A stretch of 64,000 bases of DNA, from NCBI GenBank assembly GCA_963921275.4, contig OZ001293.3:512001-576000 (forward strand), given 5' to 3'. Below the pieces are notes generated by a model. The model had not been told where the DNA came from and did no database searches. It saw only the letters and a list, made by a program, of their open reading frames with translations. Below are positions 20,080 through 63,100 of the stretch, in pieces (the first letter of the stretch is position 1; every line of letters begins with the position of its first letter). The position numbers were made by a program, and so were the translations under genes. Source of the DNA: an uncultured Hormoscilla sp. (GTDB taxonomy: Bacteria > Cyanobacteriota > Cyanobacteriia > Cyanobacteriales > Desertifilaceae).

Positions 20080-22252
20080 TCATTCGTAAAACTGGATTAT
20101 TTCCCCAAAATTTGCTTCACCGTATTCCACCCAGGCGATACAATTTCCGACGGCGTCGTACAATTCGATCGTATCTCCATGATTGCGCAAACTCATCGAG
20201 TCCGTGCGATTCGTTCTAGCCTAACGTGGTCAAACACGGAACGCTAGCCCGGTTTCATTAGCCAGGAACTCTGACCGCATGGGGGTTAAATTCCCCTCCC
20301 CCCAGGTACGGGGGTGACACCGGTCCTCGGTGCTACGAAGCGACATCATCGTGGTGCTAAGCGAGGACTCAAATGTAGGATAACTGGCAGCCTAAGCCGG
20401 TGACGCCGCTAGGAAAGATATCCAAGGTTAGAGCAGGCAAACATGTGCAAGCCTCGTTATAAGGAACCAGCGAAATAAGGCTATATGCGCTGGCCTAAAA
20501 AGGAAATGGTAGCTAGTATTAGTTTTAGACTCTGGCTAATATAGTACTCAAATAGCTCCCGGGGTATAGTGTGGACCTAAAGGTATCGCGAAATGTTGTT
20601 AGGGAACGAAGTAACCTCTCGTGTGCTGTCCATCAGGACAAGTTAGATGTTAAGCGCAAGCCACGGGGGGAGGGATGGCCCAAGAAGCGAATGCCCGGGG
20701 TAATTCCTGGGATAACATCTACAGTAATGTAGATGATGCTGGGTAGCCAGCGCTGACGTGGGTCGGTGATACTAGGAAGCTGCTGGAATGAGTAATCCTA
20801 AAAAGCCACGGAACTAATCCGAAACGCAAGTGGAGGATAAGGTATGGATAACTGGTAAAACTGACTTGAAAATGGTGATACTAACGGTTATCAGAACAAC
20901 CACTCGCTAAACCAGGAAAGGGAAGAAAAGACAGGCGGCAAGGGCTAACGGAAGTAATTCCTATTAAGTCTACCTATGAAAAGGGCCTAGTACCCAGTAG
21001 CCGGATGCGGTGAAAATCGCAAGTCCGGTTCCTCAAGGGAGGGTCGGGAAGCGATTCCCGGCTCGACCCCATCCAGACTCGATCTAGTCACCCGAAACCG
21101 CTTCACTTCCCCGGAGGCGATCGCGCCATCAAGTGGTTCCGCCCCACTATAGCTATCGCGCATTTCCCAACCTGTCAAGTCGATCGCTTCGGAACTAATA
21201 TTTTTCAACTCCACCCATTCCTTACCTTCATCCCGCCCGCGAGGGTCTGGTAAAGCCGCATAGATGGCGATCGGGCCATTTTTCTTTCCGAGCGTGCTAT
21301 CCGATCGTAGCACGCGGGGCACATTTCCCATAAATATCGGGAAAAACGAGCGAATATAAACACCTTTGCTGCCATCTAGTTCCGTATTTCTCAACAGCAC
21401 TAACTTATAATTAGCATCATCAAGGGTCGTGCGCTGACTATCCTCTCTCAGCATACCACACAAGCTTTCATAATACATCACCGTCCCCATTGCTATTTCG
21501 CATTCCGGACTCGTGCCCACAAAGAACCCACTCTCTTCCTTAAACAGTTTTGCGATCTGGTTTACCTGCTTATCCGCGTAATTCCACTCCATCTGTAACG
21601 TGACCATCCTAGGATTTTTCGCCCCCGCGTCTCCTTGCCGATAATACTTATAACCCCAATAATTTACTCGCTTCTTTTTCTCATCCAGGTAAAATTTAAT
21701 CCACGAATGATACCCCGATACTTTTCCCTGACTTACCTCCTCCCTGAATCCTTGATAATACCTGCCTTCCCCCACAAATGTATGTTCAAACCCCGACGCA
21801 TATTCAGTCCCATTTCCATAGTAATAGTTAGTATAGGGCTGAAACCAAATTTGGTACAACTTTTCTCGAAATTATAACTCCGATAGGTTAATCCTCAAGT
21901 CCTTGCCGATGTAATCAAAGGCGATCGCCATCGGTTCCGTTGCCACGATCGCATCCATAAACTCATTAATTTCCCTCGCTTCTGCCTCCGTCATCTCCTC
22001 CGTTCCTCTGGTGCTGATCACATAATTATCCAAAAGTCTCATAAAACTTTTATAAGTTGGCCCGCCAAACTTCTCCTCATTTACCCGATAGAAGAGAGGA
22101 CGATCTGCCAGAGTGCGATCGCCCGAAGCTTGCACCTGTTCGTCCAGGAGAATATCAGCATTTTCATTCTCCCATTCTCCCGACTCCTTGCGAGATGATA
22201 CGGATAATTGATTGCGATCTCCGTCCCAAAGCCTTTGATAAATATCGCTCAT
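20080..22252 (-). pseudogene. EndoU/XendoU-family endoribonuclease fused to a lamin-tail-like domain; internal TAA (21872) and antisense intron
   Basis: SGFEHTFVGE...GYHSWIKFYLDE motif; EWVELKN..S..IDLTGW; after intron removal SL|DSMSLRNHGDTIELYD...FYE* is in frame. Confidence 0.8.
20204..21074 (+). ncRNA. ORF-less group II intron, 871-nt family copy 1
   Basis: GTGCG start; DV AGCCGGATGCGGTGAAAATCGCAAGTCCGGTTC; ends TCGACCCCATCC. Confidence 0.93.
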
Positions 22253-22347
22253 TCATCCAACCTCCTAAGCAATTCACAACTGACAACTAACAACTGACAA
22301 CATCCAAATCTAGTAGAATCGATGGTGGGCAATGCCCACCCTACATG

Positions 22348-23370
22348 CTAACGAAACATGCTGCTGACCGAACTATCCTCATGGATACGCCAGATCGTCT
22401 CCCCGAGCAAATTAGCTACCGAAAGTACAGTTAGTTGTGCAAACCGTTTTTCCTGTGGCACTGGAATAGTATTAGTCACGATCACCTCTTCAAACACAAC
22501 GCTAGAGAGGCGTTCAATTGCTGGAGGGGAAAAGACAGCATGAGTCGCACAGGCATAAACCTGACGTGCCCCCACTTCCCGCAGCATCCTAGCACCTTCA
22601 CTGATTGTACCAGCGGTATCAATCATATCGTCTACCAAAACAGCAGTTTTTCCCTTTACATCCCCAATCACATTTAAAACTTCCGCCACATTGTGAGATT
22701 GGCGTCGCTTATCAATGATTGCCAGAGGTGCATCATCTAGCTTTTTAGCAAAAGCTCTCGCTCTTGCTACCCCACCCACATCCGGGGAAACCACTACAAT
22801 ATCAGATAGTTGCTTGCTAGCCAGATAATCCAGCAGGACGGGAGAGCCGTAGACATGGTCGAAAGGAATATCAAAATAGCCCTGGATCTGGGCTGAGTGC
22901 AAATCCATCGCCAGAACTCTACTGGCTCCAGCTTCTACAATCAGATTCGCCACTAGCTTAGCAGTAATCGATTCCCGCCCAGCCGTTTTGCGATCGGCCC
23001 TAGCATAGCCATAATAGGGCAGCACCGCCGTAATCTGACGCGCCGAAGCCCTACGGCTAGCATCAATCATAATCAGCAATTCCATCAAGTAGTCGTTGAC
23101 TGGAGAGCAACTTGGCTGTATTAGGTAGACATCGCAGCCTCGGATTGATTCTTGAATTTGCACGTAAATCTCGCCATCGGCAAAGCGTTTGCGAATCATC
23201 GGTCCCAAATCTAAGCCCAGGTAGCGAGCCACCTCTTGAGACAGAGGAACATTAGCCGAGCCAGAAAACAGCCGCAGACGGTTATTATCGCTAATGGTTG
23301 GTATAGTCGGCGGCATAGTCAAGGTTGCAGAACGGATCACAATAGTGCCTCGAAGCGCATTCATCGCCAT
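22348..23370 (-). CDS. prs: ribose-phosphate pyrophosphokinase
   Basis: FADGE, PYYGYARADRK, VSPDVGG, VDDMIDTAGT. Confidence 0.96.
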   Translation of the reverse strand: MAMNALRGTIVIRSATLTMPPTIPTISDNNRLRLFSGSANVPLSQEVARYLGLDLGPMIRKRFADGEIYVQIQESIRGCDVYLIQPSCSPVNDYLMELLIMIDASRRASARQITAVLPYYGYARADRKTAGRESITAKLVANLIVEAGASRVLAMDLHSAQIQGYFDIPFDHVYGSPVLLDYLASKQLSDIVVVSPDVGGVARARAFAKKLDDAPLAIIDKRRQSHNVAEVLNVIGDVKGKTAVLVDDMIDTAGTISEGARMLREVGARQVYACATHAVFSPPAIERLSSVVFEEVIVTNTIPVPQEKRFAQLTVLSVANLLGETIWRIHEDSSVSSMFR

Positions 23371-23537
23371 CTTATCATGCTCGCTCTTATAACATGCTCT
23401 CTGATTTTTCTGATATTTTTATATTTATGTGAAGCGCACCGGTTACAATTATTCAATATTTCTTAAGAGTTGTGAACTGCTGCCCGCTAACTTTGTCTAG
23501 CATATGCATGTCATATTTTTACGCTAAGGATCGGCTT

Positions 23538-23996
23538 ATGAGTCTGAAAGACCGCATCACAGAGGACATCAAAACGGCTATGAAGTCCAAGGATAAAGTC
23601 CGTCTGGAGACAGTCCGCAGCATTAAAAAGCTGCTATTGGAAAAGGAAGTCAGCGTCCGCCCTCAAGGTCAAGAGGCCCTGACGGAAGCCCAAGAACTGG
23701 AAGTGCTGGCCCAGCTAGCTAAACAACGGCGGGAGTCGATCGCACAATACCGCCAAGCGGGCCGCGAGGACTTGGTGGCACAAGAATCTCAGGAACTGGC
23801 AATCATCGAGGAGTATCTACCGCGCCAGCTGTCTGATGAGGAGGTGGCTGCCATTATCGATGAGATTATTGCCCAGGTGGGTGCTAGTTCTCCGAAAGAT
23901 ATGGGCAAGGTGATGGGACAGGCAATGCAGCAACTGAAGGGTCAAGCGGATGGCAAGAAGGTACAACAGTTGGTGAAAGCTAAGTTGGGGGGCTGA
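23538..23996 (+). CDS. GatB/YqeY domain protein
   Basis: MSLKDRI..D.K.AMK, KQRRESI..Y, DMGKVMG. Confidence 0.9.
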   Translation: MSLKDRITEDIKTAMKSKDKVRLETVRSIKKLLLEKEVSVRPQGQEALTEAQELEVLAQLAKQRRESIAQYRQAGREDLVAQESQELAIIEEYLPRQLSDEEVAAIIDEIIAQVGASSPKDMGKVMGQAMQQLKGQADGKKVQQLVKAKLGG

Positions 23997-24176
23997 GTTC
24001 CTTCCCCTTGCCCGGGCCAGTTAGCACCAGTTGGCAATCTCGACTTTCGATCCGTTGTATGTTACTCTGAATGGTCAGGGATGGCGATCGCCCGTTCGGC
24101 ACCAGACTGGCGATTGCCATCCCCCCACCCCTATGGCGGTGGGGCTACTCGAATATCACCCGCCTTACCTATTTAT

Positions 24177-26080
24177 ATGTTCAAGTTCAAAAAAATCCTC
24201 GCGCTTATCGGTCAAACAGCTTTAATCGGTTTAATCTCATTAGGATTGACAGAAATCGCCTTCCGAGTATACAATAAAATTAACCCCAGTTTTATTTTCT
24301 ACGATCGGTCATACAATCGCTTTCGCGGCAAACCCAAGGCCCTGGACTATGATTTCACCTTAAACTCAAAGGGGTTTAAGGATGTTGAATTTAACCAGAA
24401 AAAATCTTCAGGTATATACCGCATATTAGGGATAGGCGATTCCTTTGCTTATGGAGTGGTTTCGTATCAGTACAATTACTATACTCGCGTAGAATAAAAA
24501 CTGAATCAACGAGAGAAAAAATTTGAAATCATTAATATGGGGATTCCCAACTTGGGGCCGAAAGATTATCTCTCAATTTTGGTGAATGAAGGATTGGAAT
24601 TAAATCCAGATATGGCGATCGTCAGTTTTTTCATTGGCAATGATTTTTCCGATATGCAACCTACCAGAAGCCTATATTCATATGTAGCCTCATTTATTAA
24701 GTTTGCGATCGACCTGCAGAAAAGCTATGAAGGACGGCAGATTCACGGAAATATGGTATATGAAGATGACCGACCGAGTATGGAGGCAGAAAAATTTTTG
24801 GAAATCCAAATCAACAGAAGCTATATTCACCTAAAGCAAAATGAATATTTCGAGAATCAGCTCAAGTCAGCAGTCAGTTATTTAAGCAAAATCAAGGAAA
24901 TATGTGATGCCAAAAATATTGATTTTTTGGTAGTAATAATTCCTGACGAGTTACAAGTAAACGAAAAATTGCAATCTCAAGTAATTCAAGCATTAGAATC
25001 TCATCCAGATAATTTTGATTTTACACTACCAAATCGATTGTTGTCTCGGGAACTGGAAAGTGAAAAGATTGAATATCTAGACATGTTAAGTGAGTTGAAG
25101 TCGGTTTCTCAATCGAAAAGAGTTTGTGCGATTCGTTCTAGCCTAACGTGGTCAAACACGGAACGCTAGCCCGGTTTCATTAGCCGGGAACTCTGACCGC
25201 ATGGGGGTTAAATTCCCCTCCCCCCAGGTACGGGGGTGACACCGGTCCTCGGTGCTACGAAGCGACATCATCGTGGTGCTAAGCGAGGACTCAAATGTAG
25301 GATAACTGGCAGCCTAAGCCGGTGACGCCGCTAGGAAAGATATCCAAGGTTAGAGCAGGCAAACATGTGCAAGCCTCGTTATAAGGAACCAGCGAAATAA
25401 GGCTATATGCGCTGGCCTAAAAAGGAAATGGTAGCTAGTATTAGTTTTAGACTCTGGCTAATATAGTACTCAAATAGCTCCCGGGGTATAGTGTGGACCT
25501 AAAGGTATCGCGAAATGTTGTTAGGGAACGAAGTAACCTCTCGTGTGCTGTCCATCAGGACAAGTTAGATGTTAAGCGCAAGCCACGGGGGGAGGGATGG
25601 CCCAAGAAGCGAATGCCCGGGGTAATTCCTGGGATAACATCTACAGTAATGTAGATGATGCTGGGTAGCCAGCGCTGACGTGGGTCGGTGATACTAGGAA
25701 GCTGCTGGAATGAGTAATCCTAAAAAGCCACGGAACTAATCCGAAACGCAAGTGGAGGATAAGGTATGGATAACTGGTAAAACTGACTTGAAAATGGTGA
25801 TACTAACGGTTATCAGAACAACCACTCGCTAAACCAGGAAAGGGAAGAAAAGACAGGCGGCAAGGGCTAACGGAAGTAATTCCTATTAAGTCTACCTATG
25901 AAAAGGGCCTAGTACCCAGTAGCCGGATGCGGTGAAAATCGCAAGTCCGGTTCCTCAAGGGAGGGTCGGGAAGCGATTCCCGGCTCGACCCCATCCACAA
26001 ACCTCAAGATACCCACTGGAATATTGCCGGAAACGAGTTGGCAGCAGAAATGATTTATAATATCTATCAGAGAATGCCGA
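24177..26080 (+). pseudogene. SGNH/GDSL hydrolase-like protein with internal TAA (24495) and a sense-strand intron
   Basis: RILGIGDSF, GND; splicing restores RV-Y-KPQDTHWNIAGN (DxH motif); 3' end approximate. Confidence 0.8.
25126..25996 (+). ncRNA. ORF-less group II intron, 871-nt family copy 2
   Basis: Near-identical to copy 1; flanks GAGTTT|...|ACAAACC. Confidence 0.93.
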
Positions 26081-26083
26081 ATT

Positions 26084-26779
26084 ATGAATACATTATTGAT
26101 TACGGGAACGGATACGGATGCTGGTAAGACTGTGCTGACAACTTGTCTTGCTGCTTACTGGCAAACCTATTATCCCGATCGCAGTTGGGGAATAATGAAA
26201 CCAATTCAGGCGGGAAAGGGCGATCGGGAACTATACAGGGAGTTATTTTCCCTAGACTTATCCCCAGAAGAGATAACACCGCTATATTTCCAGACGCCAG
26301 TAGCCCCACCCATAGCGGCCCAGCGAGAAGGAAAACTGATAGAATTGGCAAAAGTATGGCAGACATTTAACAGCCTGCAACAGAAAAAAGATTGGTTGTT
26401 AGTGGAAGCCTTAGGAGGGTTAGGTTCTCCGGTAACGGAGGAACTGACAGTGGCAGATATAGCGAGAGATTGGCGGTTACCGGTGGCCTTAGTGGTGCCA
26501 GTCAAGCTAGGGGCGATCGGGCAAGCGGTGGCCAACGTTGCCCTAGCCCGCCAGTGCGAGATTGAGATCGAAGGTATAGTCTTGAATTGTATCAACCCAT
26601 GTTCGGACGAACAACTTGCGGACTGGACACCCATTGACCTAATTGAGTCTCTAACCTACAGGCCAGTTTTAGGAATTTTACCTCATCTGGCGGACCCCAA
26701 GGACTTAACAAAACTAGCTCAAGTTGCCTCAAATCTAGATTTAGAAAGATTGCTTCGGGGTTCGTATTCGGGTTCGTAG
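26084..26779 (+). CDS. bioD: dethiobiotin synthase
   Basis: ITGTDTDAGKT, KPIQ, VEALGG. Confidence 0.93.
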   Translation: MNTLLITGTDTDAGKTVLTTCLAAYWQTYYPDRSWGIMKPIQAGKGDRELYRELFSLDLSPEEITPLYFQTPVAPPIAAQREGKLIELAKVWQTFNSLQQKKDWLLVEALGGLGSPVTEELTVADIARDWRLPVALVVPVKLGAIGQAVANVALARQCEIEIEGIVLNCINPCSDEQLADWTPIDLIESLTYRPVLGILPHLADPKDLTKLAQVASNLDLERLLRGSYSGS

Positions 26780-27068
26780 TAAGCACAAAGCGTGCTTCGG
26801 GGTTCGTATTCGGGTTCGTAGTAAGCACAAAGCGTGCTTCCGGATCGCAAGGACTAAAGTCCTTACTAGGAACTATTTTAAATTAACAATACAAAACTAG
26901 CTCAAGTTGCCTCAAATCTAGATTTAGAAAGATTGCTTCGGGGTTCGTATTCGGGTTCGTGGTAAGCACAAAGCGTGCTTCGGGGATTCGGGTTTGTAGT
27001 AAGCACAAAGCGTGCTTTCGGATCGCAAGGACTTTAGTCATTACTAGGAACTATTTTTAATTAACAAT
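26708..27068. repeat. ~180-bp tandem duplication spanning the 3' ends of convergent bioD and sbcD
   Basis: 26708-26890 matches 26891-27068; includes GTTCGTAGTAAGCAC...GTGCTT REP-like units also seen at 4208 and 45092. Confidence 0.8.
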
Positions 27069-28318
27069 TGCTGGACAAACTCGTAAATATTTTCTACAGG
27101 TTGGTTATTGAGTACCCGATCTTTTATATCGATCAGGGCTTTAGCAAACTCGGGTGCCTTTTGACTATAATAGACATTAGCCGCTAGCAAATCTTCAAAC
27201 ACCTGGAGTTCAATTTCAGACTTGGTGGGGGCCCGGTCGCCCGCCAGCATAGGCGTTTCATACTCAGTACCAGTAGCATCATACTTGAGTAAAAATATCA
27301 GCGCCTCGCACTCGCGATGCAGCTGCTGTCGGAGCGATCGCACGTTCAGGTCAAGGCGATTAAACCCCAACTGACCGAAGATGCGCAACTCGACGATCGC
27401 CTGTTGAGTTTTCCCTTGCTGAGCGACTGCTTGCACCTTTGCTAGAGCCGCTGCTTCCAATTCTACCAGAGTTTGCTGCTTATTTACTTCTAAGTTGAGG
27501 CGCAAGATCGATCGCTGATAATAATCTTGTTTCAACTGGGCGTTAATTCCCCGTTTGTCTATCTCCACCAGATAGACTCCCCGTGGGTTTTGCCCTTGAC
27601 TTTCCGCAATGCTATTAGCCTCTACGGAACCGGGATTAAAAATCCAACCTTCTGCAGTATAATGCTTGTGGATGTGACCCAGAGCCAGATAATCTACACC
27701 CGCATCTTTGAGTGGTAATAAATCTTGGTAGCGCAAGGCCCCTTCATAACGGGCAATCTGACCCTCTAACCCGTGATGAAATATCATGACAGTATGCTGG
27801 GGGCTCCCAGGCAACTGCCCGATTGCCGCTGCCAGTTGGGCGATCGCCTGGGGGGCCGCCGCACCGTACCACCGAGAGCCCAGAACCCGCACCCCGCAAT
27901 CTAAATCTATATAGCCACCAGTTTTCGTCTCTGGCGTCCACAGGTCATAAATTGCAGCGATCTCAATAGCAGCTTCATTAGGTTCGAGCAAAATCAACTT
28001 TTCCCAATCTGCCAGATAGCGCAGCCAGCTACTTTTGGTACCATAGGGCTGGTTATCGTGATTTCCTTCAATGGCCAACACAGGAATACCCGCTTCCTTG
28101 AGCATATCTAGACAGACCTGGGCATGATTGAGGGTAGCTGGCAGAATCTGCCGATGTTCAAACAAGTCACCAGCAATCAGCACAAAATCCACCGCTTCCC
28201 CCACAGCGTACTTTTCCAAAGCATCCTGAAATGCCAGAAAAAAGTCTTTCGTCCGCTCAGCATTATCGTAGCGGTCAAAACCCAGATGCACATCGGCCAC
28301 ATGTAGAAATCGGGGCAT
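27044..28318 (-). CDS. sbcD: SbcD/Mre11-family DNA repair exonuclease
   Basis: ADVHLG, AGDLF, GNHD, LGHIH, NPGS. Confidence 0.88.
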   Translation of the reverse strand: MPRFLHVADVHLGFDRYDNAERTKDFFLAFQDALEKYAVGEAVDFVLIAGDLFEHRQILPATLNHAQVCLDMLKEAGIPVLAIEGNHDNQPYGTKSSWLRYLADWEKLILLEPNEAAIEIAAIYDLWTPETKTGGYIDLDCGVRVLGSRWYGAAAPQAIAQLAAAIGQLPGSPQHTVMIFHHGLEGQIARYEGALRYQDLLPLKDAGVDYLALGHIHKHYTAEGWIFNPGSVEANSIAESQGQNPRGVYLVEIDKRGINAQLKQDYYQRSILRLNLEVNKQQTLVELEAAALAKVQAVAQQGKTQQAIVELRIFGQLGFNRLDLNVRSLRQQLHRECEALIFLLKYDATGTEYETPMLAGDRAPTKSEIELQVFEDLLAANVYYSQKAPEFAKALIDIKDRVLNNQPVENIYEFVQQLLIKNSS

Positions 28319-28733
28319 AATTAATTCAAAATTCAAAATTATTAACCCTATAAATAACGTTTTTTATCCTGTCCGATTAAATACCCATCCATAAAATTTT
28401 ATCACCTGTAGGTTTGGTTGAGGCACGAAACCAAACCTGTTATTGGGTAACGCGAGACATTGGTGAAGTTTTAAAAATTTTATGGGTAATTACCCACACA
28501 TGATATTATTTGTTAGTTGTTAGTATAATAATGCTATCACAGAACACAGTAACAAAATCTTATAATGTAATCTAGCCCGCCTGCGCGGGCGAAAGTTTGT
28601 CTAGCCCCACCCCTCGTTCCCACGGCTCTGCCTGGGAACGGTTGAGGGCCTGGTAGCTAATAATTGATTAGATCGTGATAGTTCTGCTTACATACGCCTA
28701 AAATCCGCTTGTCGTTCTCACTCACTGAGGGAC

Positions 28734-29840: not shown

Positions 29841-30414
29841 AGATGCTTCTTTATATCTTTATGTTTCCCTGTTTTTCCGGATAAATCACAGGTTGTCCAT
29901 TTTTTCTATGGCTGCGCCACGCTGCGCGATCGGACCCCTGATCCCTTTAATCACCTCTGATTTCCCCCACTGGCTGCGACCATCTCATACTCCGGAGCGA
30001 GTTTGATTTATTTTTATCCTAATCCGGATATTTCGATCTAAACTGTGACCGGGGTCATCCGTTTTTTTGAGCTGGTGGCATTAATTTTTACCGCCATAAT
30101 TGCCTTACTTCCCGAATGTTATACCTACTTCTATGATGCCCCACCCACTGCCAGATGACCCTTTGCAGCCAATAGAGAAAACCGAACTTGTTTGAGATTA
30201 CTTGCTCTGGAAAGTCATCCTCCTAGTAGCGTCTTTTACCTACATCGCTCTTAGTACCCCACTAATAATGAATACAGTTTGAATCTAATATATTCTACAT
30301 TGGGGAAAAAATCAACCTCCTTCAGGCCAAGAAAATAAACAATCATGTATGGCCTGTATTATATCATAATCAGCAGCGTAGGACAAGTCTCGCCTGTCCG
30401 TGCCGGTGGGCAAA

Positions 30415-32124: not shown

Positions 32125-32248
32125 TTTTTTATTGCTAATTGAGAATTGAGAAAGGCAGATTTATTTATTCATGTCCATAGCGCGACTGCGTTGCGCGATC
32201 CCAAATGCGCAATCTTTCATTCACCATTCTCAATTTTTCATTCACCAT

Positions 32249-33274: not shown

Positions 33275-35070
<1,796 letters not shown>

Positions 35071-35359: not shown

Positions 35360-35459
35360 CGTTCTATGCTCGTTGATTATAGACAACTCTCTCTACTTCT
35401 ATGATAATGCTTCTTAGCGATTCTGACAAGGGGCGATCGCATCTTCCAACGCCCGCACC

Positions 35460-39665: not shown

Positions 39666-39683
39666 GTTACGATCTTAAATTAT

Positions 39684-41732: not shown

Positions 41733-42590
41733 TCAATTGGCCATTAGCAATTGAAATTGCCGATCGTCAATTCGTTCGGCTCCTTGCAGAGTTTCAGCAA
41801 TTTCCGATAAAGTCAAAACCGCGTGACCGAGATAGCCATGGGCTTGCAGTTTATCCTTGACTCCCCCTCCTTGGTCAATAAACACGACAATATCTTTAAC
41901 TTCTAATCCCACAGACTGGAGTTTTTCCGCGCCTTGCATGACACTATTACCAGTAATCAGAATATCATCGACCACCACAACCTTTTCTCCCGGTTCGTAA
42001 TGTCCCTCAATCAGCCTTTGAGTGCCGTGCGCTTTGACCTCTTTGCGAGGGAAAATCATCGGACGTTCCATCCGCAGGGCCAAACCAGTGGCGGTGGGCA
42101 AAGATCCATAGGGGATTCCAGCAATGCGATCGAACTCCAGCCCTTGAAGAATTTCAGCGTAGGCTCCGACGATTTGGTAGAATACCTGGGGTACAGAGAT
42201 CATTTTGCGCAGGTCGATGTAATACGGTAAGATCGCTCCAGATGCCTGAACGTGCTCGCCAAAAATAATGCAACCGATGTCATAGAGTTGCAAAATCAAA
42301 TCTAGATGGGGTTGGGGGTGCAACACACAGACATTGGGCACCCACAACTCGCAGGTAGGATTTCCTTGCACGACCAACTGACGTTCCTGATTAATCGATT
42401 CTCCCAGGGAGGCGATCGCCTCACGGGGAAATTCGGACCGCAAAAAGTCCGGCGGTACTGGTAGCAGCAATCCTTCGCCATAGCTATTCAAGCCAGCATT
42501 AAGCATTTGGGATAATTGCTGATATTCTCCCAACACCATAATTAAGCGTTCCGGTGCCGCCGATCGCACGCTCACCAGCAACCTGAGCAA
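41733..42590 (-). pseudogene. pyrE: C-terminal part of bifunctional PyrF/PyrE; OPRT domain intact, N-terminus missing
   Basis: YYIDLR, GIPYG, RKEVKAHG, VVVDDILITG; only a partial decarboxylase-like segment precedes it before the divergent yebC. Confidence 0.75.
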
Positions 42591-52656: not shown

Positions 52657-52724
52657 GGATAAATAAAAATATTATTTTTGATATTGAATTGACAACAGAG
52701 AGAATATAAGGTAAGAGGTGGGCA

Positions 52725-53667
52725 GTGCGAATTGTTTTGGCGTAAGTCTGAAATATGGCGATAGCCGGGCTGGTTAATACCAGCAACTCTGGTCATCATG
52801 GGGGTTCAATTCCCCTTCCCCCAGGTACGGGGGTGACCGCGTGAGGTGCTGCGGAGTAACATTACCGTGGTGCCTCCCGAGGACAAATGTAGGATAAGGT
52901 CTCAGCCCAGAGACCGACGCCGCATGGCTGCGCCACGCTGCGCGATCGGAAAGAGGCTCATGGTTAGAGCAAGCGAATCCCTGTAAGCATCGTCATCTTA
53001 AACAAGCGAAAAGAGGCTGACACGCTTGGTGCAAAATGCGCACGCAGTCCGCGTATCAGTGGTTGCATGTCACTGATATCGTACCCGAAATGACTGCCGG
53101 TGTATAGGGGAGACCTAAAAGCCTCGTGAAATGATACCAGGGAACGTTCCGGACAAGAGCGGTGCTGTCCAGATGGACAAGTCAGATGTGCGTCCGCGTA
53201 GCGTGCGCGCAGCGCCTAGCGCATGCCCGCGTGGGGAGGGAGGTCCTAAGAAGCTAATGCCCGGGGTAATGCCTGTGGATATGCAGACGTAGGACGGATA
53301 TGGTAAAAAGCTCTAGGAGATAGTAGCCCTCTAAACGTGCTTAACCAGTGGCAACACTAGGTAGTAATGATGGACTGAAATCCTAACCGGGTAAAAAATT
53401 TAGAGGCCCCATACGGGCACCTGTTAGTAAAGAACGGTCATAGTGGTTTTCTAGTTCTCCCCCGTAAACCTTCCGGAGTTAGGTACTCAACTAGTTCATG
53501 ACTGACCATAAAGGGGCTATATTTCATAGGGCAAGGGACAACGGGAGTAATCTCTAGTAATCCTACCCGTGACAAGGGTTTACCAACCAGTAGCCGTGTG
53601 CGGTGAAAGTCGCTCTTCAGGTTCCGAATGGGAGGATTGTCCCGCGAGGGACAGCTCGACCCCGACC
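52725..53667 (+). ncRNA. ORF-less group II intron (intergenic, diverged, with micro-insertions)
   Basis: GTGCGAATTG start; homologous to the 17246 intron; DV near 53592; ends TCGACCCCGACC. Confidence 0.85.
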
Positions 53668-55305: not shown

Positions 55306-57061
55306 GTGCGATTCGTTTAACGTAAATTTCACCGGTGATAACCGGTAAAAGGGACCGCTAGCAGGGTAACACAAAACCCTGACAACTTACAGATGATGGT
55401 GGTGAAAGCCCACCCCTCCAGGTGTAGGAGTGACAGCACATTCCCGACGGTAGCGATGGCATCAATCCGTAAAGCGGGAATGAAAGGCGACTGGTAGCCT
55501 ACACCGGTCCGATACCTGAGGGGTTGCCTGCGTTGCATCCCGAAGGCATCGAAGCCAAGCAAGTAGCCATGATGAGCATAAAGCAAAGATTTGCAGCGTC
55601 GTAACATAAAACCAGTGAAATAAGGCTGACGGCCCAAAAGGGAAAGGATACAGGTCGCTGGCGGTTCTGCTCACCGACCAGTAAGCACCGACAACAAACC
55701 CGGCGTAAGGAATCCATCCTTAGCTACAACTAATCACCTGTAGGAACGAAGTAACCTGATCATGTACTCTCTATCGAGTCGGTGCGATTCGTTCTAGCCT
55801 AACGTGGTCAAACACGGAACGCTAGCCCGGTTTCATTAGCCGGGAACTCTGACCGCATGGGGGTTAAATTCCCCTCCCCCCAGGTACGGGGGTGACACCG
55901 GTCCTCGGTGCTACGAAGCGACATCATCGTGGTGCTAAGCGAGGACTCAAATGTAGGATAACTGGCAGCCTAAGCCGGTGACGCCGCTAGGAAAGATATC
56001 CAAGGTTAGAGCAGGCAAACATGTGCAAGCCTCGTTATAAGGAACCAGCGAAATAAGGCTATATGCGCTGGCCTAAAAAGGAAATGGTAGCTAGTATTAG
56101 TTTTAGACTCTGGCTAATATAGTACTCAAATAGCTCCCGGGGTATAGTGTGGACCTAAAGGTATCGCGAAATGTTGTTAGGGAACGAAGTAACCTCTCGT
56201 GTGCTGTCCATCAGGACAAGTTAGATGTTAAGCGCAAGCCACGGGGGGAGGGATGGCCCAAGAAGCGAATGCCCGGGGTAATTCCTGGGATAACATCTAC
56301 AGTAATGTAGATGATGCTGGGTAGCCAGCGCTGACGTGGGTCGGTGATACTAGGAAGCTGCTGGAATGAGTAATCCTAAAAAGCCACGGAACTAATCCGA
56401 AACGCAAGTGGAGGATAAGGTATGGATAACTGGTAAAACTGACTTGAAAATGGTGATACTAACGGTTATCAGAACAACCACTCGCTAAACCAGGAAAGGG
56501 AAGAAAAGACAGGCGGCAAGGGCTAACGGAAGTAATTCCTATTAAGTCTACCTATGAAAAGGGCCTAGTACCCAGTAGCCGGATGTGGTGAAAATCGCAA
56601 GTCCGGTTCCTCAAGGGAGGGTCGGGAAGCGATTCCCGGCTCGACCCCATCCATAGCCACCAAAGGCGCAACCTCTGCCTTCATCAGGCAGGTCATGATT
56701 AGGAAGGATTTCGTGGAGAAGCAAACGCCTATCTGTAATGGACAGGATAAGCCGACCACGGTAATGTCAAATGTGAAGTTGTAAGTAGCAGTAAAAACCT
56801 TATGAGCACGGTAATCAAACCAATGAATGAATGGAGGACAACCCCCCCTGGCGAAAGCTGGAAAGGAAAGTCTTTTGCTTCTGAGAATTTACAGAGCGGC
56901 ACAACGTGGCGACAACTGCTACGATGTAAAAAAAACTGCCAGCGATGGTAGTCGCCGTATCCATGACAGGGATGGCATTACTGAGGAGCCGGATGAGGTG
57001 AAAAGCAGATCGTCCGGTTCTGAAGACGAGACGGGGTGGCAACACCCTGGCTTAGTTTAAC
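55306..57061 (+). ncRNA. ORF-less group II intron of a second lineage (outer intron of a twintron)
   Basis: GTGCGATTCGTTT start; DV GAGCCGGATGAGGTGAAA...CCGGTTC near 56985; canonical end TTAGTTTAAC; exons join in frame. Confidence 0.9.
55782..56652 (+). ncRNA. ORF-less group II intron, 871-nt family copy 3 (inner intron of the twintron)
   Basis: Matches the other copies except C>T in DV (56586); 5' flank GAGTCG. Confidence 0.93.
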
Positions 57062-57466
57062 GAATTACCGGGAGGTGGGTATTGCGGTCCTACCCGAAAA
57101 TAACTCCAATACTAGCGTCGGTCCCCTGGTGGTTGTCCAGAATTTTGGCTCGCGCTCAAACAACGGCCTACCCTGGTTGTTGGGAGTAGTGTTTGCAGAT
57201 GCTGACGCGCGACAATTTCTACGACAGCGGCGAAGGACTAGGGGGCGTTAATGTCAACATTAGCGGTTCCAATGGTTCCTTTTCTACCAGGACTATGACT
57301 GCTGGTGACTATCAGCAGCAGGTATGGAGTTATTACTCAAGTTGTCAATATCGGGTTTGATAATACTAAACTTGACCTAATGGTTTACGGGGCTCCCTAC
57401 AAATGGTAAAGACTGTAGTCGTCACTACAAACGGCCTCTCACGCTGTCCTCTAGGTAAGACTCGCC

Positions 57467-59317
57467 GTGCAACCCGTTGACTTTACTACCCTAACTGCTG
57501 CTTGTGCTGAACTGCGCGATCGCATGCTGCCCGCCAGACTAGAACAAGTCTATCAGCGCGATCGGCACAATCTGGCCCTAGCATTGCGTACCCTGAGGGG
57601 CCGAAATTGGCTAAATATCTGCTGGCATCCCCAAGCCGCACATATATGCATCGGCGACCCACCGCCGAAAATCCCCGATACCTTTACCTTTAGCGACCAA
57701 CTCCGACATCAACTGCATGGTCTGGCCTGGGTGGCCATTGAACCAGTCGCCCCTTGGGAAAGGGCCTTAGACCTACAATTTGCCAAGCGTCCGGGAGAAC
57801 CAGCCCTCTGGCACCTGTACGTAGAGATCATGGGCAAATACAGTAACGTAATTTTAACCAATCAGCAGAACCAGATCGTCACAGCCGCCCACCAGGTAAG
57901 CGAAGAAAAATCCAGCGTCCGTCCCATTCTCACCGGTCAGCCCTACTCACTGCCACCAGCCCTGACTAATCCTATTCCCAATTTAAGCGAATCTCCCCAA
58001 CACTGGCAAGAGCGAGTGGGATTAGTTCCCGGACAGTTGTGGCGTCAACTGCTCAAATGCTATCGCGGACTGAGTCCAACCCTGGTAAAATCAATGGTCG
58101 CAGCAGCGGGGTTAGAGCCAAATCAACCTACCGATACTCTCACAGATGTAGAGTGGCAGCAATTGTGGAAATGCTGGCAATTCTGGTTGCAGGCCCTAGA
58201 AACAGCGCAATTTCATCCGGGCTGGACAAAAGAGGGATATACTATCATGGGTTGGGGCGCAACGGCACCAGTCCCTTCTACCCATGAATTGCTCGATCGC
58301 TACTATACCAGCCAGTTGAACCGCCAGGAATTCACCCAACTCCGCCATCAACTCCTGCAAAAACTCGATCGCCTCTTAGAAAAGCAGGGTCAAAAAGCCC
58401 TGACATTCTGGGAACGGTTACAGCAATCGGACTCCGCCGACGAGCATCGTCAACAGGCTGACTTGCTGATGGCCTACTTGCAAGAATGGCAACCGGGAAT
58501 GACATCCATTTCCCTGTGCGACTTCCAAACAAATGTACCCATTACCATTCCCCTAGATCCCAAAAAGAATGCTATCCAAAATGCTCAATCCCTTTACAAG
58601 CGTCACCAGAAGCTGAAACGGGCCCGCAGTGCAGTTGAACCATTATTCAACCAAGTGAAGGTAGAAATTGAGTATCTCGAACTGGTGAAAGCTACCGTCT
58701 GGCAACTGGATAGCTACGAGGCTAAGGAAGATTTACAAACTCTAGCAGAAATTCGCGAAGAGTTAATCGGTCAGGGATATTTGGACAAGTCCGAACAGCC
58801 CCGCCTTCGATGCCTTCGGGATGCTAGCGGCTGCGCAGCCGCTGCGCTAACGCAAAAACCTACGATGCCCGAGGGGAGCGCTAGTCGCACTACCCCTCGG
58901 GCATCGCTCAGGCATCGACGCCATACTGATACTTCTGTTCCTTATCGTTTCCAGACACCCAGCGGTTTTGAACTGTTAATCGGTCGCAACAACCGGCAGA
59001 ATGACCAGATCTCTTTTCGGATCGCCAATGACTATGACCTCTGGTTTCACACCCAAGAAATTCCTGGTAGTCACGTGCTCATGCGGTTACAACCTGGTAA
59101 ACTACCCGATGACGTGGATTTGCAATTTGCCGCCGACCTGGCAGGGTATTATAGTCAGGGACGCCAGAGCGATCGGGTGCCGGTGGTGTACACAGCCCCC
59201 AAGCATGTTTATAAACCCAAGGGCGCCAAACCTGGTATGGTCATCTACAAGCAAGAGACTGTCCTCTGGGGGCGGCCCCAACAGGCGAGCGGGCGAGCGG
59301 TGATTGAAAAGATATAA
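57467..59317 (+). CDS. rqcH: NFACT/RqcH (FbpA-like) ribosome quality control protein
   Basis: MQPVDFTTL, VEIMGKYSN, GRNNRQND, WFH....PGSHV; ~37-aa in-frame insert at ~58808-58917. Confidence 0.88.
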   Translation: MQPVDFTTLTAACAELRDRMLPARLEQVYQRDRHNLALALRTLRGRNWLNICWHPQAAHICIGDPPPKIPDTFTFSDQLRHQLHGLAWVAIEPVAPWERALDLQFAKRPGEPALWHLYVEIMGKYSNVILTNQQNQIVTAAHQVSEEKSSVRPILTGQPYSLPPALTNPIPNLSESPQHWQERVGLVPGQLWRQLLKCYRGLSPTLVKSMVAAAGLEPNQPTDTLTDVEWQQLWKCWQFWLQALETAQFHPGWTKEGYTIMGWGATAPVPSTHELLDRYYTSQLNRQEFTQLRHQLLQKLDRLLEKQGQKALTFWERLQQSDSADEHRQQADLLMAYLQEWQPGMTSISLCDFQTNVPITIPLDPKKNAIQNAQSLYKRHQKLKRARSAVEPLFNQVKVEIEYLELVKATVWQLDSYEAKEDLQTLAEIREELIGQGYLDKSEQPRLRCLRDASGCAAAALTQKPTMPEGSASRTTPRASLRHRRHTDTSVPYRFQTPSGFELLIGRNNRQNDQISFRIANDYDLWFHTQEIPGSHVLMRLQPGKLPDDVDLQFAADLAGYYSQGRQSDRVPVVYTAPKHVYKPKGAKPGMVIYKQETVLWGRPQQASGRAVIEKI

Positions 59318-59915
59318 TAGGGCTAATTTATGCTTTAGCTAACATCAGATAAAATCTTTTTATGTAAAGTTCAGAAAATTTATGTAAATTTTTATGACAA
59401 AAAATTAGTGTATGTTGCTACAATATATTTAAGGTGATTCCCGGAAAAGAAAATACCTGGATGAACTCCAAAGCACGACGGTACCCGAGAGGAAAGCCAA
59501 ACCTGCATGTCGGATCTTGGTACCTTTTTTTTCAGAAATCACCTAAGAGAAAAAAAAGTTAAACATTTACCCGCCTACGCCTTGGGAAGCGCAGTTCGGG
59601 TTTCCTCTCTCCGACAACTGATCGACAACTTTGACCAAGACCAGCGATAATATAGCTGGTCTTGGTTTATTGTGCTTGACATGAGGCGGTTTGCATTCCG
59701 ATGAGGTACAGACGCACATTAGATAGCCGGTGAAGACTAGATATGGATGTACTCCACGAGGATGAAAACCACTATAAATGCGTTGACGGGAGCGCGATCG
59801 CCTCTCATACTGTTATAATGGCTACAGTTGCGGAGCTCCTGGTCAAAATCCCTATGTTGACCGAGCAAAAACACCTGTAACGAGCAAAAAGCGTCAGTAG
59901 ATACTATAGAGTAAA

Positions 59916-60641
59916 ATGATCAATCAATATACAAATATTACTGAGTATTACGACTTGTGGGTAAATTCTGGTTACTACGACTACCAAATCCTCGCTTCCG
60001 AAGCACACTCAATTGTGGGGAATGGTCGTGAGGTGCTTGAGTTAGGCGTAGGAACGGGACTACTGGCAGAAAAGTACATTGAGATTGACCCAACATGCGA
60101 GTTTACGGGAGTTTATTTTACTGCATCCATGCTGGAGATTGCCAAGAAACGGTTGGGAGATACATTTAAATTGATAGAAGCAGATGCTGTAACAATGGAC
60201 TTAAACGCAACCTTCGATGTAGCGATATCTAATGGAGGAGTGTGGGGAATTCTGGATTTGGACGATCGCGATCGATGGGAATTTGGAGGCCACGTTCCCA
60301 GCATTGAAGCCAACCGTCAAGGGTTAACAAACTTAGCTAACCACTTACGAGAAGGAGGATTATTATTGTTACACCTGCAAAAATCACACGAGGACTTTTA
60401 AAAATCCCTACCTAGGGGAATTATTTATTCCCAATTTGTAGAAGAAGGAGAAGATAGGAGTGAATATCATACTTTTTATAAGAATTATAGATTTAAACAA
60501 GATGGAAAAATAATAGCTGAAGAACAGCTATTATTTACCTGCTTTAAACCAGAGATTTCTAGAAAGATGTTAAGCGAAGCAGGATTTGATTTCCAAGACA
60601 CCAGTAATGGCGATCGCTTTGCAATTTATCAAAAGCGGTAG
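59916..60641 (+). pseudogene. class I SAM-dependent methyltransferase with in-frame TAA at 60399
   Basis: VLELGVGTG motif I; frame continues to TAG at 60641. Confidence 0.8.
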
Positions 60642-60769
60642 TAAACATATTACCAAAAGAACAATGGGGCAAAGTATTTGGAAATCAACTTTTCTGTTTG
60701 CCGCGAAAAGTATATGGGCAAAGAATTTGCCTCTGAAAAAAAGATTTATGCAGAATTATAATATTCGAT

Positions 60770-60936
60770 GGCGTTGCACATTGAGGGATGATAGCAGCCA
60801 ATTGTTGAAAATTGCTAATTGCTAATTGCTAATTGCCAAGAGTAAATACATCTATTCATGACCAAAAATGACTATCTGGATTAACCTTTGAGTATTAGCA
60901 ATTAGCAACCTTATCATCCCGTCGTTGTGCAACGCC
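60770..60936. mobile_element. MITE with an STRR-filled core
   Basis: TIR GGCGTTGCACA...GGGATGATA; 8-bp TSD TATTCGAT. Confidence 0.85.
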
Positions 60937-60991
60937 TATTCGATGACTATTTCGATTCAGCTTAGCTGACGAATTAAACCTTTGCCACCAG

Positions 60992-61447
60992 ATGCAAATA
61001 GCTATTTTTCATCACGAACTACACCTATTCGGGATGAAGATACCTGATGACTATGACCAGTTCTCACTCTATATGCAAGTTCTGAATTATGACGCTGTTG
61101 TCGGAACTTACCGAATTGTTCTTCCTAACCCCTCTCTCGGACTACCCATAGAGGAAAGTGGGTTTGACATCAAGCAGTTCGATCCTCATAAGGTCTGCGA
61201 AATGTCACGTCTCGTCCTGCTTAAAGAAAAGCGAGGTAAAATTCCCTTTAGCAAAATAATCTCTTCTGCTTGTAGGGTCGCCAAACAGCATGACGCTTCC
61301 ATTCTATTGGTTGCGATTCTCCCTCGCAATTTTCTCCTATTTAAAAGATATGGCTTCTCACAAGTGGGGCCACCACTCTCGGATCCTTCTGTTGAGTCTA
61401 TTGACACAGAAGAAGCAGTCGTTATCCCAATGCAAATACATGTTTGA
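60992..61447 (+). CDS. GNAT / acyl-amino-acid synthase-like protein (upstream region disrupted by a MITE)
   Basis: D.YD..S, VGTYRIV and EMSRLV motifs of the LuxI/FeeM-like GNAT fold. Confidence 0.6.
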   Translation: MQIAIFHHELHLFGMKIPDDYDQFSLYMQVLNYDAVVGTYRIVLPNPSLGLPIEESGFDIKQFDPHKVCEMSRLVLLKEKRGKIPFSKIISSACRVAKQHDASILLVAILPRNFLLFKRYGFSQVGPPLSDPSVESIDTEEAVVIPMQIHV

Positions 61448-61448
61448 T

Positions 61449-61590
61449 GGGTGCATCTCAGAATAAAAAATTGAGAATGGAAAATTGAGAATGGAAAATT
61501 AAGAATTGCCCCATTTTTTATTAGTCATTCGCAATTCGCAATTCGTAATTAGCTATTTTCCATTCGCAAATACAAAAGTGAGATGATCCC
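61449..61590. mobile_element. MITE with ISKra4-like ends
   Basis: GGGTGCATCTCA ... TGAGATGATCCC, same ends as the 16697-18991 element; core of heptamer repeats. Confidence 0.7.
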
Positions 61591-61694
61591 TCTTTTATTT
61601 CTCTATTTCAGCAATAATCAGAAAGGCCAGCTAGTAGTTAGCAGACAACTGACAACTAACAACTGATAATTGACAACTAACAACTGACCAAATA

Positions 61695-63100
61695 TTAATG
61701 TAGGTCTGATTGCCAGATGCAGATGTAGAGGCGATCGCGCTTAGTTTCCCACTTAATGATGCCTTCAAGGGGACCGAGGGTAAAGGAGTAGTGGGCGGCG
61801 TCTCCTGGGTAGTGCGACTAGCGCTCCCAGGAGACACCGGGGGACTGGCGAGTCCAAACCTGTTGGAGTCCGTGCGATTCGTTCTAGCCTAACGTGGTCA
61901 AACACGGAACGCTAGCCCGGTTTCATTAGCCGGGAACTCTGACCGCATGGGGGTTAAATTCCCCTCCCCCCAGGTACGGGGGTGACACCGGTCCTCGGTG
62001 CTACGAAGCGACATCATCGTGGTGCTAAGCGAGGACTCAAATGTAGGATAACTGGCAGCCTAAGCCGGTGACGCCGCTAGGAAAGATATCCAAGGTTAGA
62101 GCAGGCAAACATGTGCAAGCCTCGTTATAAGGAACCAGCGAAATAAGGCTATATGCGCTGGCCTAAAAAGGAAATGGTAGCTAGTATTAGTTTTAGACTC
62201 TGGCTAATATAGTACTCAAATAGCTCCCGGGGTATAGTGTGGACCTAAAGGTATCGCGAAATGTTGTTAGGGAACGAAGTAACCTCTCGTGTGCTGTCCA
62301 TCAGGACAAGTTAGATGTTAAGCGCAAGCCACGGGGGGAGGGATGGCCCAAGAAGCGAATGCCCGGGGTAATTCCTGGGATAACATCTACAGTAATGTAG
62401 ATGATGCTGGGTAGCCAGCGCTGACGTGGGTCGGTGATACTAGGAAGCTGCTGGAATGAGTAATCCTAAAAAGCCACGGAACTAATCCGAAACGCAAGTG
62501 GAGGATAAGGTATGGATAACTGGTAAAACTGATTTTAAAATGGTGATACTAACGGTTATCAGAACAACCACTCGCTAAACCAGGAAAGGGAAGAAAAGAC
62601 AGGCGGCAAGGGCTAACGGAAGTAATTCCTATTAAGTCTACCTATGAAAAGGGCCTAGTACCCAGTAGCCGGATGCGGTGAAAATCGCAAGTCCGGTTCC
62701 TCAAGGGAGGGTCGGGAAGCGATTCCCGGCTCGACCCCATCCGAGTTGGAGTTCCTGATTTATCTGACAGCCGGACATAGCATCGAAGGTTTTCAGCACC
62801 TCCTGAAAATCAAACTCAGTCACAAAGGAAGCTTCGGTTTGGCGAATCACTCCAGAATTGCCATCAAACAGGAAGCCCAAGCTGACTCGATCGCGAATCA
62901 GTTCATAGAAAACAGCATCTGTATGGGCCAAATAGCCTTTCTCAGTCCCAGTTGGAACGCCAAACATGCGCAGGACATAACTTTTGTGAATTCCTGGTTG
63001 AAATCATGGAATTCCTACGCCGATAGGCATCTGACGACAGACCTGTTCGTGCATCTGCCAAGGAGTTAGTTGCAGTAATGAAGTTTCTTCTACAGGAACT
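61695..63100 (-). pseudogene. C-terminal domain fragment typical of cyanobacterial Ser/Thr kinases, interrupted by an intron
   Basis: SLGFLFD..SG.IRQTEASF...QL|GLQQVW...RDRLYICIWQSDLH*; 5' boundary approximate. Confidence 0.6.
61872..62742 (+). ncRNA. ORF-less group II intron, 871-nt family copy 4
   Basis: Near-identical to copies 1-3; 5' flank GAGTCC; antisense to its host gene. Confidence 0.93.

Follow-up and report, generated by a model that had tools for sequence, protein, structure and literature searches.

The leading model for the origin of spliceosomal introns and their shared splicing machinery invokes a proliferation of non-autonomous group II introns, and to our knowledge the bacterial cases behind that model are very few, chiefly that of the cyanobacterium Thermosynechococcus elongatus. 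The T. elongatus genome is about 2.6 Mb in length, and that of Arthrospira platensis, which is considered below, about 6.8 Mb. The closest precedent for the locus described here is T. elongatus BP-1 with its ORF-less TeI3 introns and TeI4 "driver" IEPs (Mohr, Ghanem and Lambowitz 2010, PMC2882425), where mobilization of ORF-less introns by the IEPs of other introns has been shown experimentally. As that report describes them, the T. elongatus introns resemble ours in being group II introns of ~0.8-0.9 kb in a cyanobacterium that are numerous, closely related and ORF-less, in forming families with distinct EBS sequences, in the presence of twintrons and of identical or near-identical recent copies, and in having few insertions in intact genes (PMC2882425). 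The two differ in that ORF-end remnants are visible and driver IEPs were identified in T. elongatus, whereas neither was found here in the sequences searched (the window and three related loci, below), and in that its whole genome is reported to hold 28 introns whereas here ten lie within 64 kb (PMC2882425).

Three other systems are informative. Ll.LtrB is known to retrotranspose to ectopic sites, for the most part in ssDNA (PMC4256276), and there as here the insertion sites only resemble the homing site, with pairing by the intron RNA driving the reaction and gene context being irrelevant. It is, however, a class IIA intron that is autonomous, with LtrA encoded by the intron itself, and its retrotransposition in experiments is infrequent, whereas the pattern discussed below is read from an IIB-type intron that is non-autonomous, at four sites where it has inserted naturally. 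The filamentous cyanobacteria A. platensis and Trichodesmium also carry numerous CL-type and ORF-less introns including twintrons; the 101 group II introns of the former were the top count in one survey (PMC8919778), and a twintron is reported for the latter (PMC4649490). Finally, the group II/III introns of Euglena chloroplasts are, like ours, very dense, ORF-less and in part twintrons, and presumably rely on few RT/maturases in trans (as summarized in PMC2882425); they are organellar, highly degenerate and located within essential genes, whereas here the ribozyme domains are intact and both protein-coding hosts carry nonsense codons.

The window, by which we mean the whole 64-kb stretch of DNA analyzed (all coordinates refer to it), contains four copies of an 871-nt element on the + strand, at 20204..21074, 25126..25996, 55782..56652 and 61872..62742 (copies 1 to 4). 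They form a single young family of group II introns that are IIB-type, ORF-less and non-autonomous. We think it probable (about 0.75) that the copies arose by recent, low-specificity retrotransposition of this single family to ectopic sites, with the RT/maturase provided in trans. Alignment with 60-nt flanks and direct comparison agree that the shared sequence runs in all four copies from GTGCG through ...CCCCATCC, so the positions, length and near-identity given in the initial annotation are exact. With copy 2, which is identical to the family consensus, as reference, a total of four substitutions occur over 4 x 871 nt, in the same places the annotation had noted, and every one is private to a single copy (20264 G>A in copy 1, 56586 C>T in copy 3, and 62533 C>T and 62536 G>T in copy 4). 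Outside the element the 60-nt flanks are unrelated, so the four copies are not part of a segmental duplication with shared flanks, one of the cases that the annotation had named as overturning it.

The element carries the hallmarks of a group II ribozyme. Its 5′ end is GUGCG in all four copies, as it is in all ten introns of the window, and fits the group II GUGYG. Domain V (20999..21030, + strand, in copy 1) has AGC at its start and a GAAA loop, and the Rfam domain V/VI model RF00029, whose gathering score is 40, gives 44.4 bits for three of the copies; copy 3 scores 39.2, just under that threshold, because its 56586 C>T change lies within domain V, where it converts a G-C pair to G.U. Compensatory changes are found at 49 of 166 consensus pairs among six related introns, including the helices on both sides of an unpaired A in domain VI (21066..21066, + strand, 8 nt from the 3′ end), which is the candidate branch point. 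The 3′ end is ...AUCC rather than the usual AY, and related introns end in CC, CU or AU; the boundary, 4 nt past GACCCC, is fixed by the reading frames restored in three introns. No EBS3 column was found among the introns compared. We also note that copy 1, being antisense, is unable to splice out of its own host mRNA, and that domain V of copy 3 is weakened.

As the initial annotation had claimed, the copies have no RT ORF: the longest stop-to-stop frame within the element is 58 aa, and none of the 49 window ORFs scanned matches a Pfam RT family. A tblastn search of the window and of related loci L001-L003 (at least three loci, among the matches listed) with a group II IEP found no RT (best E 0.069), nor did this single heterologous query reveal any IEP remnant in domain IV. 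No protein of the 6,879,066-bp contig is among the best 120 of 8000 IEP homologues. Since the element encodes nothing, its RT/maturase would have to come from elsewhere in the genome, and we would place the source outside the window, acting in trans. Splicing and mobility could depend on the IEP of a sister intron or, alternatively, on a free-standing host maturase/RT or the RT of an unrelated retroelement. The latter would be consistent with the lack of any detectable IEP remnant in domain IV and with the ORF-less state of all ten window introns and of four intron sequences in L001-L003, but such remnants could be too diverged or wholly deleted, our view is limited to 64 kb, and all experimentally studied ORF-less bacterial mobility has used a related intron's IEP, as far as it is covered in PMC2882425; we regard a protein other than a sister IEP as an unlikely source.

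Two pairing elements bear on the insertion sites. EBS1, AGACUC, occupies the terminal loop of a conserved hairpin (20527..20532 in copy 1; 25449-54, 56105-10 and 62195-200 in the others), and EBS2, UAAGG, was assigned by covariation in related introns to intron positions 257-261 (20460..20464; 25382-86, 56038-42 and 62128-32), all on the + strand. The 5′ flanks of copies 1 to 4 are GAGTCC, GAGTTT, GAGTCG and GAGTCC, and every one matches EBS1, which is complementary to GAGUYU as the annotation had pointed out. IBS1 pairs at 5, 6, 5 and 5 of 6 positions; the 25126 site (GAGTTT) is the full match, and position -1 is mismatched in the other three. By simple arithmetic the chance of GAGT at -6 to -3 in three further copies is about (1/256)^3. 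IBS2 (positions -13 to -9) pairs at only 3, 3, 4 and 3 of 5 positions, whereas it pairs at 5/5 in all seven introns that belong to another family or EBS type (the nested L001 intron and six more). The target rule of the 871-nt family comes from four sites only. Over ten flank-plus-intron sequences, 84.5% of IBS/EBS cells are paired, compared with 52.4 +/- 3.9 in shuffles, none of 500 of which reaches 84.5%, and sliding the partner lowers the pairing to 34-49%. The three further EBS1/IBS1 pairs proposed for other families are correct, but they are not the same match, since those sites also pair 5/5 with their own EBS2; likewise, the earlier figure of ~5-bp specificity is largely right for the 871-nt family but overlooks the existence of EBS2 and its partial pairing.

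We infer from these features an RNA-mediated pathway in which excised intron RNA would reverse-splice into a DNA strand, its site chosen mainly by EBS1 pairing with GAGUY at -6 to -2 and in part by EBS2 pairing with -13 to -9, and the inserted RNA would then be copied into DNA by the protein supplied in trans. Such EBS1-led, partly EBS2-paired site choice would make the sites ectopic (retrotransposition) rather than cognate homing sites, and weak IBS2 with resemblance mainly in IBS1 is the pattern of ectopic retrotransposition of the Ll.LtrB type. Ordinary site-specific retrohoming into cognate sites, read by a full EBS1 plus EBS2 (plus protein) code, would account for the perfect EBS1 match at 25126; furthermore, at least 3/5 IBS2 pairs occur at all four sites and at 81 of the 263 GAGTY sites of the window, so that the 871-nt sites are somewhat above background, and most T. 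elongatus ORF-less introns are reported to lie at well-paired sites (PMC2882425). Against it are the incomplete IBS2 and position -1 pairing, the fact that nothing beyond GAGT is common to the four sites, and the empty state of both window sites that match fully, and we regard it as improbable. These two sites, with perfect EBS1 and EBS2 pairing, are +41782 and -6084. Their being empty is unexpected for a very active element; an insertion at 41794 would disrupt a gene.

Under ectopic retrotransposition, insertion would occur regardless of the host gene, and the four copies comprise one in sense orientation, one antisense, one inside another intron and one (copy 4) with no recognizable gene spanning the junction. 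Copy 2 lies in sense within an SGNH/AlgX-like gene (24081..26127, + strand; exons 24081-25125 and 25997-26127), at a junction where the upstream exon ends ...KRV, the split codon becomes Y and the downstream exon begins KPQDTHWNIAGNELAAE. The rejoined product is collinear with the uninterrupted homologues P0002 (87% identical), P0004, P0005, P0010 and P0013. Copy 1, antisense, splits an XendoU-LTD gene (20083..22252, - strand) 41 codons ahead of its stop; the 40-aa downstream piece aligns straight after ...KRFRVTRSS in all five full-length homologues, and the Pfam LTD profile is matched at positions 4-62 ahead of the junction and 84-108 past it. Both proteins are restored when exactly 871 nt are taken out, but not with 869 or 870. 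Each gene also has an in-frame TAA, at 24495-24497 (SGNH/AlgX-like) and 21872-21874 (XendoU-LTD).

The annotation's proposal of recent spread, for which it had suggested looking for empty sites in relatives, is supported in that the copies are young, with their four private substitutions, and the copy 2 site is empty in P0002, which is 87% identical at the protein level. Old insertions could instead have been held near-identical by gene conversion, with concerted evolution and no recent burst. Four copies on one strand inside 42 kb are favorably placed for conversion, and identity stops exactly at the element ends, as it would for tracts between dispersed repeats. However, the empty site in P0002, the private nature of every substitution, and the nearest counterparts in the related genome that was sampled, which among the matches listed are 91-93% identical with another EBS1 and at other sites, make this explanation quite improbable. 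In Hormoscilla sp. GUM202, a relative at 91% identity has UCUAGA in place of the EBS1 found here, and it is UCUAGA that its flanks match. Repeats of 0.9 kb that are nearly identical are well known to cause misassembly, but an assembly artefact or DNA-level duplication is extremely unlikely given the unique flanks at each copy, the two independent frames that excision restores to match homologues, the coincidence of element and ribozyme ends, and a contig of 6,879,066 bp.

The 871-nt family is accompanied by six other introns. The outer member of a twintron (55306..57063, + strand, 3′ end approximate; 476 nt, the 871-nt insert and ~411 nt) carries copy 3 after its position 476, begins 15 nt past a stop codon, and has EBS1 CUGCUC paired 6/6 with IBS1 GAGCAG and EBS2 paired 5/5. 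An intron 72% identical to the 871-nt element (33802..34636, +; IBS1 6/6, IBS2 5/5) lies in sense within a Ser/Thr kinase gene, with the DFG motif on one side and the APE motif on the other, and others of 927 nt (17246..18172, +; IBS1 6/6, IBS2 5/5) and 943 nt (52725..53667, +; IBS1 5/6, IBS2 5/5) are also related. Two related introns are arranged head to tail at 12521..14114 (- strand), one complete (12521-13458) and one without its middle part (13459-14114), and their shared EBS1 and EBS2 fit the flank of the upstream copy only. A profile built from six of the introns recovers ten elements from the window, neither more nor fewer, with no extra fragments at E<=1e-3. The ten sum to ~8670 nt or 13.5% of the window, in agreement with the annotation's count of ten and estimate of about 13%, and locally its description of the density as extreme is correct. 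At least seven distinct EBS1/EBS2 sets occur across 11 introns and there is one twintron in the window and one in L001, so families with diverged EBS sequences and twintrons are both present, as in a T. elongatus-type system.

The behavior of the 871-nt family is already known in kind, and it is the local intron density that is unusual. With the genome size given above, A. platensis has ~1 intron per 67 kb, as against 1 per 6.4 kb in this window alone, and the locus adds a second, denser case of ORF-less group II intron proliferation. The family can be caught just after jumping, with four substitutions, an empty site in a relative, both orientations and one intron-in-intron, and its target rule is directly readable from the flanks. 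The host lineage is apparently close to obligate sponge symbionts. It is possible, although we think it doubtful, that the window is a fair sample of a 6.9-Mb, host-restricted Hormoscilla-like genome in the midst of a group II intron invasion led by a lineage with a relaxed target (EBS1 plus partial EBS2). If so, the genome would hold hundreds to about a thousand ORF-less copies, amounting to 10% or more of its DNA and several-fold over the bacterial record of 101 introns in the survey cited above (PMC8919778), and the 871-nt lineage would act like a bacterial SINE, spreading through genes that nonsense mutations have already inactivated. Such a density genome-wide would make this the most intron-laden bacterial chromosome known, would tie intron bursts to relaxed selection, and would offer a living model of the burst that early eukaryotes are proposed to have undergone.

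Intron insertions also account for several seemingly truncated genes in the window and are worth bearing in mind in its annotation. All four 871-nt copies, and eight of the ten window introns in total, lie on the + strand; 21 of 32 2-kb bins have a positive GC skew, but the introns are G-rich themselves.

The four near-identical, ORF-less group II introns recognized in the initial annotation are each exactly 871 nt long, and alignment of the four regions with 60 nt of flank, together with direct comparison, found that description base-accurate in its lengths, positions and differences. All four lie on the + strand, start with GTGCG and end with ...GACCCCATCC. Copy 2 (25126-25996) equals the consensus, and every substitution is private to a single copy: 20264 G>A in copy 1 (20204-21074), 56586 C>T in copy 3 (55782-56652), and 62533 C>T and 62536 G>T in copy 4 (61872-62742). 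Three of the copies match the Rfam model of group II domain V/VI with 44.4 bits, against a gathering score of 40, and the match is 39.2 bits in the 55782 copy, in which 56586 C>T turns a domain V G-C pair into G.U. No frame inside the element is longer than 58 aa, in keeping with the earlier statement that the copies hold no reverse transcriptase (RT) ORF, and an RT domain is absent from all 49 larger ORFs of the window. A blastn search with the 871-mer against plasmids and E. coli genomes gave no match.

Since the Rfam match ends two bases before the end of the shared block, element lengths of 869, 870 and 871 nt were each tested by excision. Sensible host products came from the 871-nt excision only, which restores both host proteins and so excludes an 869-nt intron ending in AU at the end of the Rfam match, with a 3′ exon that would begin with a conserved CC. 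At the 25126 junction the upstream exon ...SQSKRV is joined through a split codon T|AC (Y) to the downstream exon KPQDTHWNIAGNELAAE..., and SGNH/AlgX-like homologues, including one that is 87% identical (P0002), run uninterrupted through this site. Thus, copy 2 has the same orientation as the hydrolase gene that it interrupts, and a fairly close relative lacks an intron at this site. The host gene at 20204 is on the opposite strand and encodes an XendoU-LTD protein. In this protein the Pfam LTD match falls into two parts, profile positions 4-62 ahead of the junction and 84-108 beyond it; the 40-residue downstream piece aligns directly after ...KRFRVTRSS in all five full-length homologues. Copy 1 is antisense to this gene and unspliceable from its mRNA. 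No gene was recognized across the 61872 junction, where Pfam families scored no better than E 0.04 and a homologue search was negative. Both protein-coding hosts carry an in-frame TAA, at 24495-24497 (+) where the SGNH homologues have E and at 21872-21874 (-) where the XendoU-LTD homologues have Q; they look like nonsense pseudogenes, whether already at insertion or only since, and such hosts would be in line with relaxed selection on the genome.

The textbook 3′ end of a group II intron is AY. In the introns here the last two bases are CC, CU or AU, at a boundary four bases past GACCCC (e.g., 21071-21074) that reading frames fix in three cases; in particular, intron 33802 interrupts a Ser/Thr kinase in frame, between the DFG and APE motifs, which confirms the 3′ end four bases past GACCCC in this intron group. 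Six related introns, at 72-91% identity, were folded to a consensus of 166 pairs, of which 49 show compensatory double changes; in this fold a conserved hairpin carries EBS1 in its terminal loop. The first bases of domain V are AGC and its loop is GAAA; in domain VI an A, 21066 in copy 1, is left unpaired eight bases ahead of the 3′ end. The interval between domains III and V is highly variable in length among related introns, as expected after ORF loss, and no ORF remnants were seen when the group II intron-encoded RT/maturase (IEP) of plasmid pO157 was compared by tblastn with the window and three related Hormoscilla loci, L001-L003 (best E 0.069). Among the six introns no EBS3 column covaries with the first 3′-exon base, which is A, A, A and G at the four 871 sites.

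The initial annotation had correctly assigned EBS1 to AGACUC. This assignment was extended by a count of flank pairing over ten sequences, in which the 14-nt 5′ flank and domain I were aligned. The helices counted were flank positions -6 to -1 with EBS1 and -13 to -9 with a variable 5-mer between conserved CGUUA and AACCAGCG, which we propose is EBS2. Pairing was found in 84.5% of the IBS/EBS cells, compared with 52.4 ± 3.9 after shuffling (a level that none of 500 shuffles reached was thus observed), and dropped to 34-49% when the partner was slid by 1-3 columns; all 11 IBS/EBS pairs show two-sided changes. The intron at 12521-13458 was left out of the count, since its 5′ flank is formed by the 3′ end of the copy that precedes it (counted by hand, 0/6 flank positions pair with the shared EBS1). 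Pairing is complete, 6/6 for IBS1 and 5/5 for IBS2, in introns 33802 and 17246 and in the Hormoscilla L003 intron, and is 5/6 and 5/5 in intron 52725. Intron 14114 and the outer intron of the twintron at 55306 pair at 5/5 for IBS2 and reach 6/6 for IBS1 after shifts of +1 and -2 columns, respectively, with 4/6 and 2/6 in the strict columns that the formal count used. The four 871 copies pair at 5, 6, 5 and 5 of 6 IBS1 positions, with -1 mismatched in three, and at 3, 3, 4 and 3 of 5 IBS2 positions. Thus, there is good support for this register of EBS2, and incomplete use of EBS2 sets the 871 family apart.

The window holds 263 GAGTY sites, 81 of which have at least three IBS2 pairs with UAAGG, the EBS2 of the 871 family. 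Against this background, the presence of at least three pairs at all four 871 sites is mildly non-random (about 0.009 by our own arithmetic), and IBS2 probably makes a small contribution to site choice. Full matches to both EBS1 and EBS2 occur at only two sites of the window, neither of them occupied: -6084 and +41782 (41782-41794), the latter within an opposite-strand gene that has a phosphoribosyltransferase domain. We also note that copy 1 has a palindromic target (20195-20203 / 21075-21083), ATCGAGTC CA GACTCGAT, whose arms are 8 bp long; a better IBS1 (GAGTCT) on the opposite strand of this target would give the sense orientation, and the intron nonetheless lies on the + strand.

Four observations together point to RNA-mediated insertion of the 871 copies, in which the intron RNA would have reverse-spliced and then been reverse transcribed: the precise boundaries, the match of the flanks to EBS1, the substitutions private to single copies and the orthologous site without an intron. 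DNA duplication would be the alternative; the shared flanks by which the initial annotation proposed to recognize a segmental duplication are not seen, the 60-nt flanks being unrelated in all four copies, and this rules out such a source. As to the form of RNA-mediated insertion, with retrohoming and ectopic retrotransposition defined, and their pathway described, as in PMC2882425 and PMC4256276, the poor IBS2 pairing, the mismatches at -1 and insertion regardless of gene orientation are a signature of ectopic retrotransposition, not of retrohoming. Since the 871 element has no coding capacity, an RT/maturase would have to act in trans, and we infer such a supply. With the pO157 IEP as query, the best 120 of 8000 scored proteins were all at least 59% identical to it, and none of these came from the contig that carries the window. 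Supply in trans has direct experimental precedent in T. elongatus, in which sister introns provide "driver" IEPs that mobilise 17 ORF-less introns (PMC2882425).

Blastn with the 871-mer, a relaxed Rfam scan and a profile HMM of the six introns agree on ten introns in the window, with nothing further at E ≤ 1e-3. Their combined length of about 8670 nt takes up 13.5% of the window, which bears out the ten introns and about 13% estimated earlier, and none of the ten contains an ORF. Besides the 871 copies they comprise introns at 17246-18172 (+), 33802-34636 (+) and 52725-53667 (+), a head-to-tail pair on the - strand, and the outer intron of the twintron (55306 to about 57063, +), which begins 15 nt downstream of a stop codon and is split after its own position 476 by the 55782 copy. 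The pair (12521-14114) consists of copies of one intron with zero bases between them: the first (13459-14114) has lost its middle, profile positions about 404-684, and the second (12521-13458) is complete. It lies inside a tandemly repeated block (10.3-16 kb) of PD-(D/E)XK (PDDEXK_2) transposase-like genes, and looks like the product of unequal recombination, not of a second insertion.

A scan of genome contigs with the first 24 nt of the intron gave, among the matches listed, at least three loci in Hormoscilla, two in Hormoscilla sp. GUM202 and one in GM7CHS1pb, none of those listed being in the window's own genome. Identity to the 871 family is 91-93% for the GUM202 copies, which have UCUAGA in place of AGACUC, and their flanks, TTTGGA and TCTAGA, match UCUAGA instead. 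Thus, the target-defining loop has switched within a young lineage, a likeness to the intron families of T. elongatus. In L001, a GUM202 locus, an 871-like intron (3001-4799, +) is split directly 5′ of EBS1 by an antisense 925-nt intron of the 17246 family (3314-4238, -); the site of this nested intron, the eleventh examined, pairs with the nested intron's own EBS1 at 5/6 and EBS2 at 5/5 positions. A further domain V remnant is present in the same locus at about 2811-2956 (-).

ORF-less families, EBS divergence, twintrons and trans-mobilisation have all been described for T. elongatus (PMC2882425), and the record for intron number also belongs to the cyanobacteria, with 101 in Arthrospira platensis (PMC8919778). 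The present case differs from known cyanobacterial systems in its local density of one intron per 6.4 kb (in the 64-kb window), in that all observed copies of the 871 family occupy IBS1-only sites (IBS2 partial, 3-4 of 5), and in the setting of the introns among nonsense-mutated genes. Should this density extend genome-wide, the interest of the case would rise sharply. Hormoscilla are regarded as obligate sponge symbionts with estimated genomes of 6.2-6.8 Mb (PMC6520454), and the contig carrying the window is 6,879,066 bp. The words pseudogene, transposase, reverse transcriptase and mobile are absent from that comparative genomics paper, and a literature search for group II introns or introns in Hormoscilla found no paper; the introns described here appear unreported in the literature searched.

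Several smaller features of the window accompany the introns. Eight of the ten, including all four 871 copies, are on the + strand, and cumulative GC skew climbs across the window; there may be a replication-related orientation bias, which is confounded by the introns' own G-richness. An 18-nt GC-rich element has four exact occurrences against 0.01 expected (12563-12580, 13501-13518, 29910-29927 and 52926-52943), three of them intronic and one outside introns, and a second GC-rich insert, of 27 nt, occupies one alignment position in both intron 52725 and intron 13458. These inserts may represent a small palindromic repeat family that colonises introns. Finally, 2332-3522 and 8851-9762 hold a 291-nt-period tandem array (four copies, 80-100% identity) and WD40-repeat coding repeats (126/381-nt spacing), the latter adjoining a DDE transposase gene (7835-8659).
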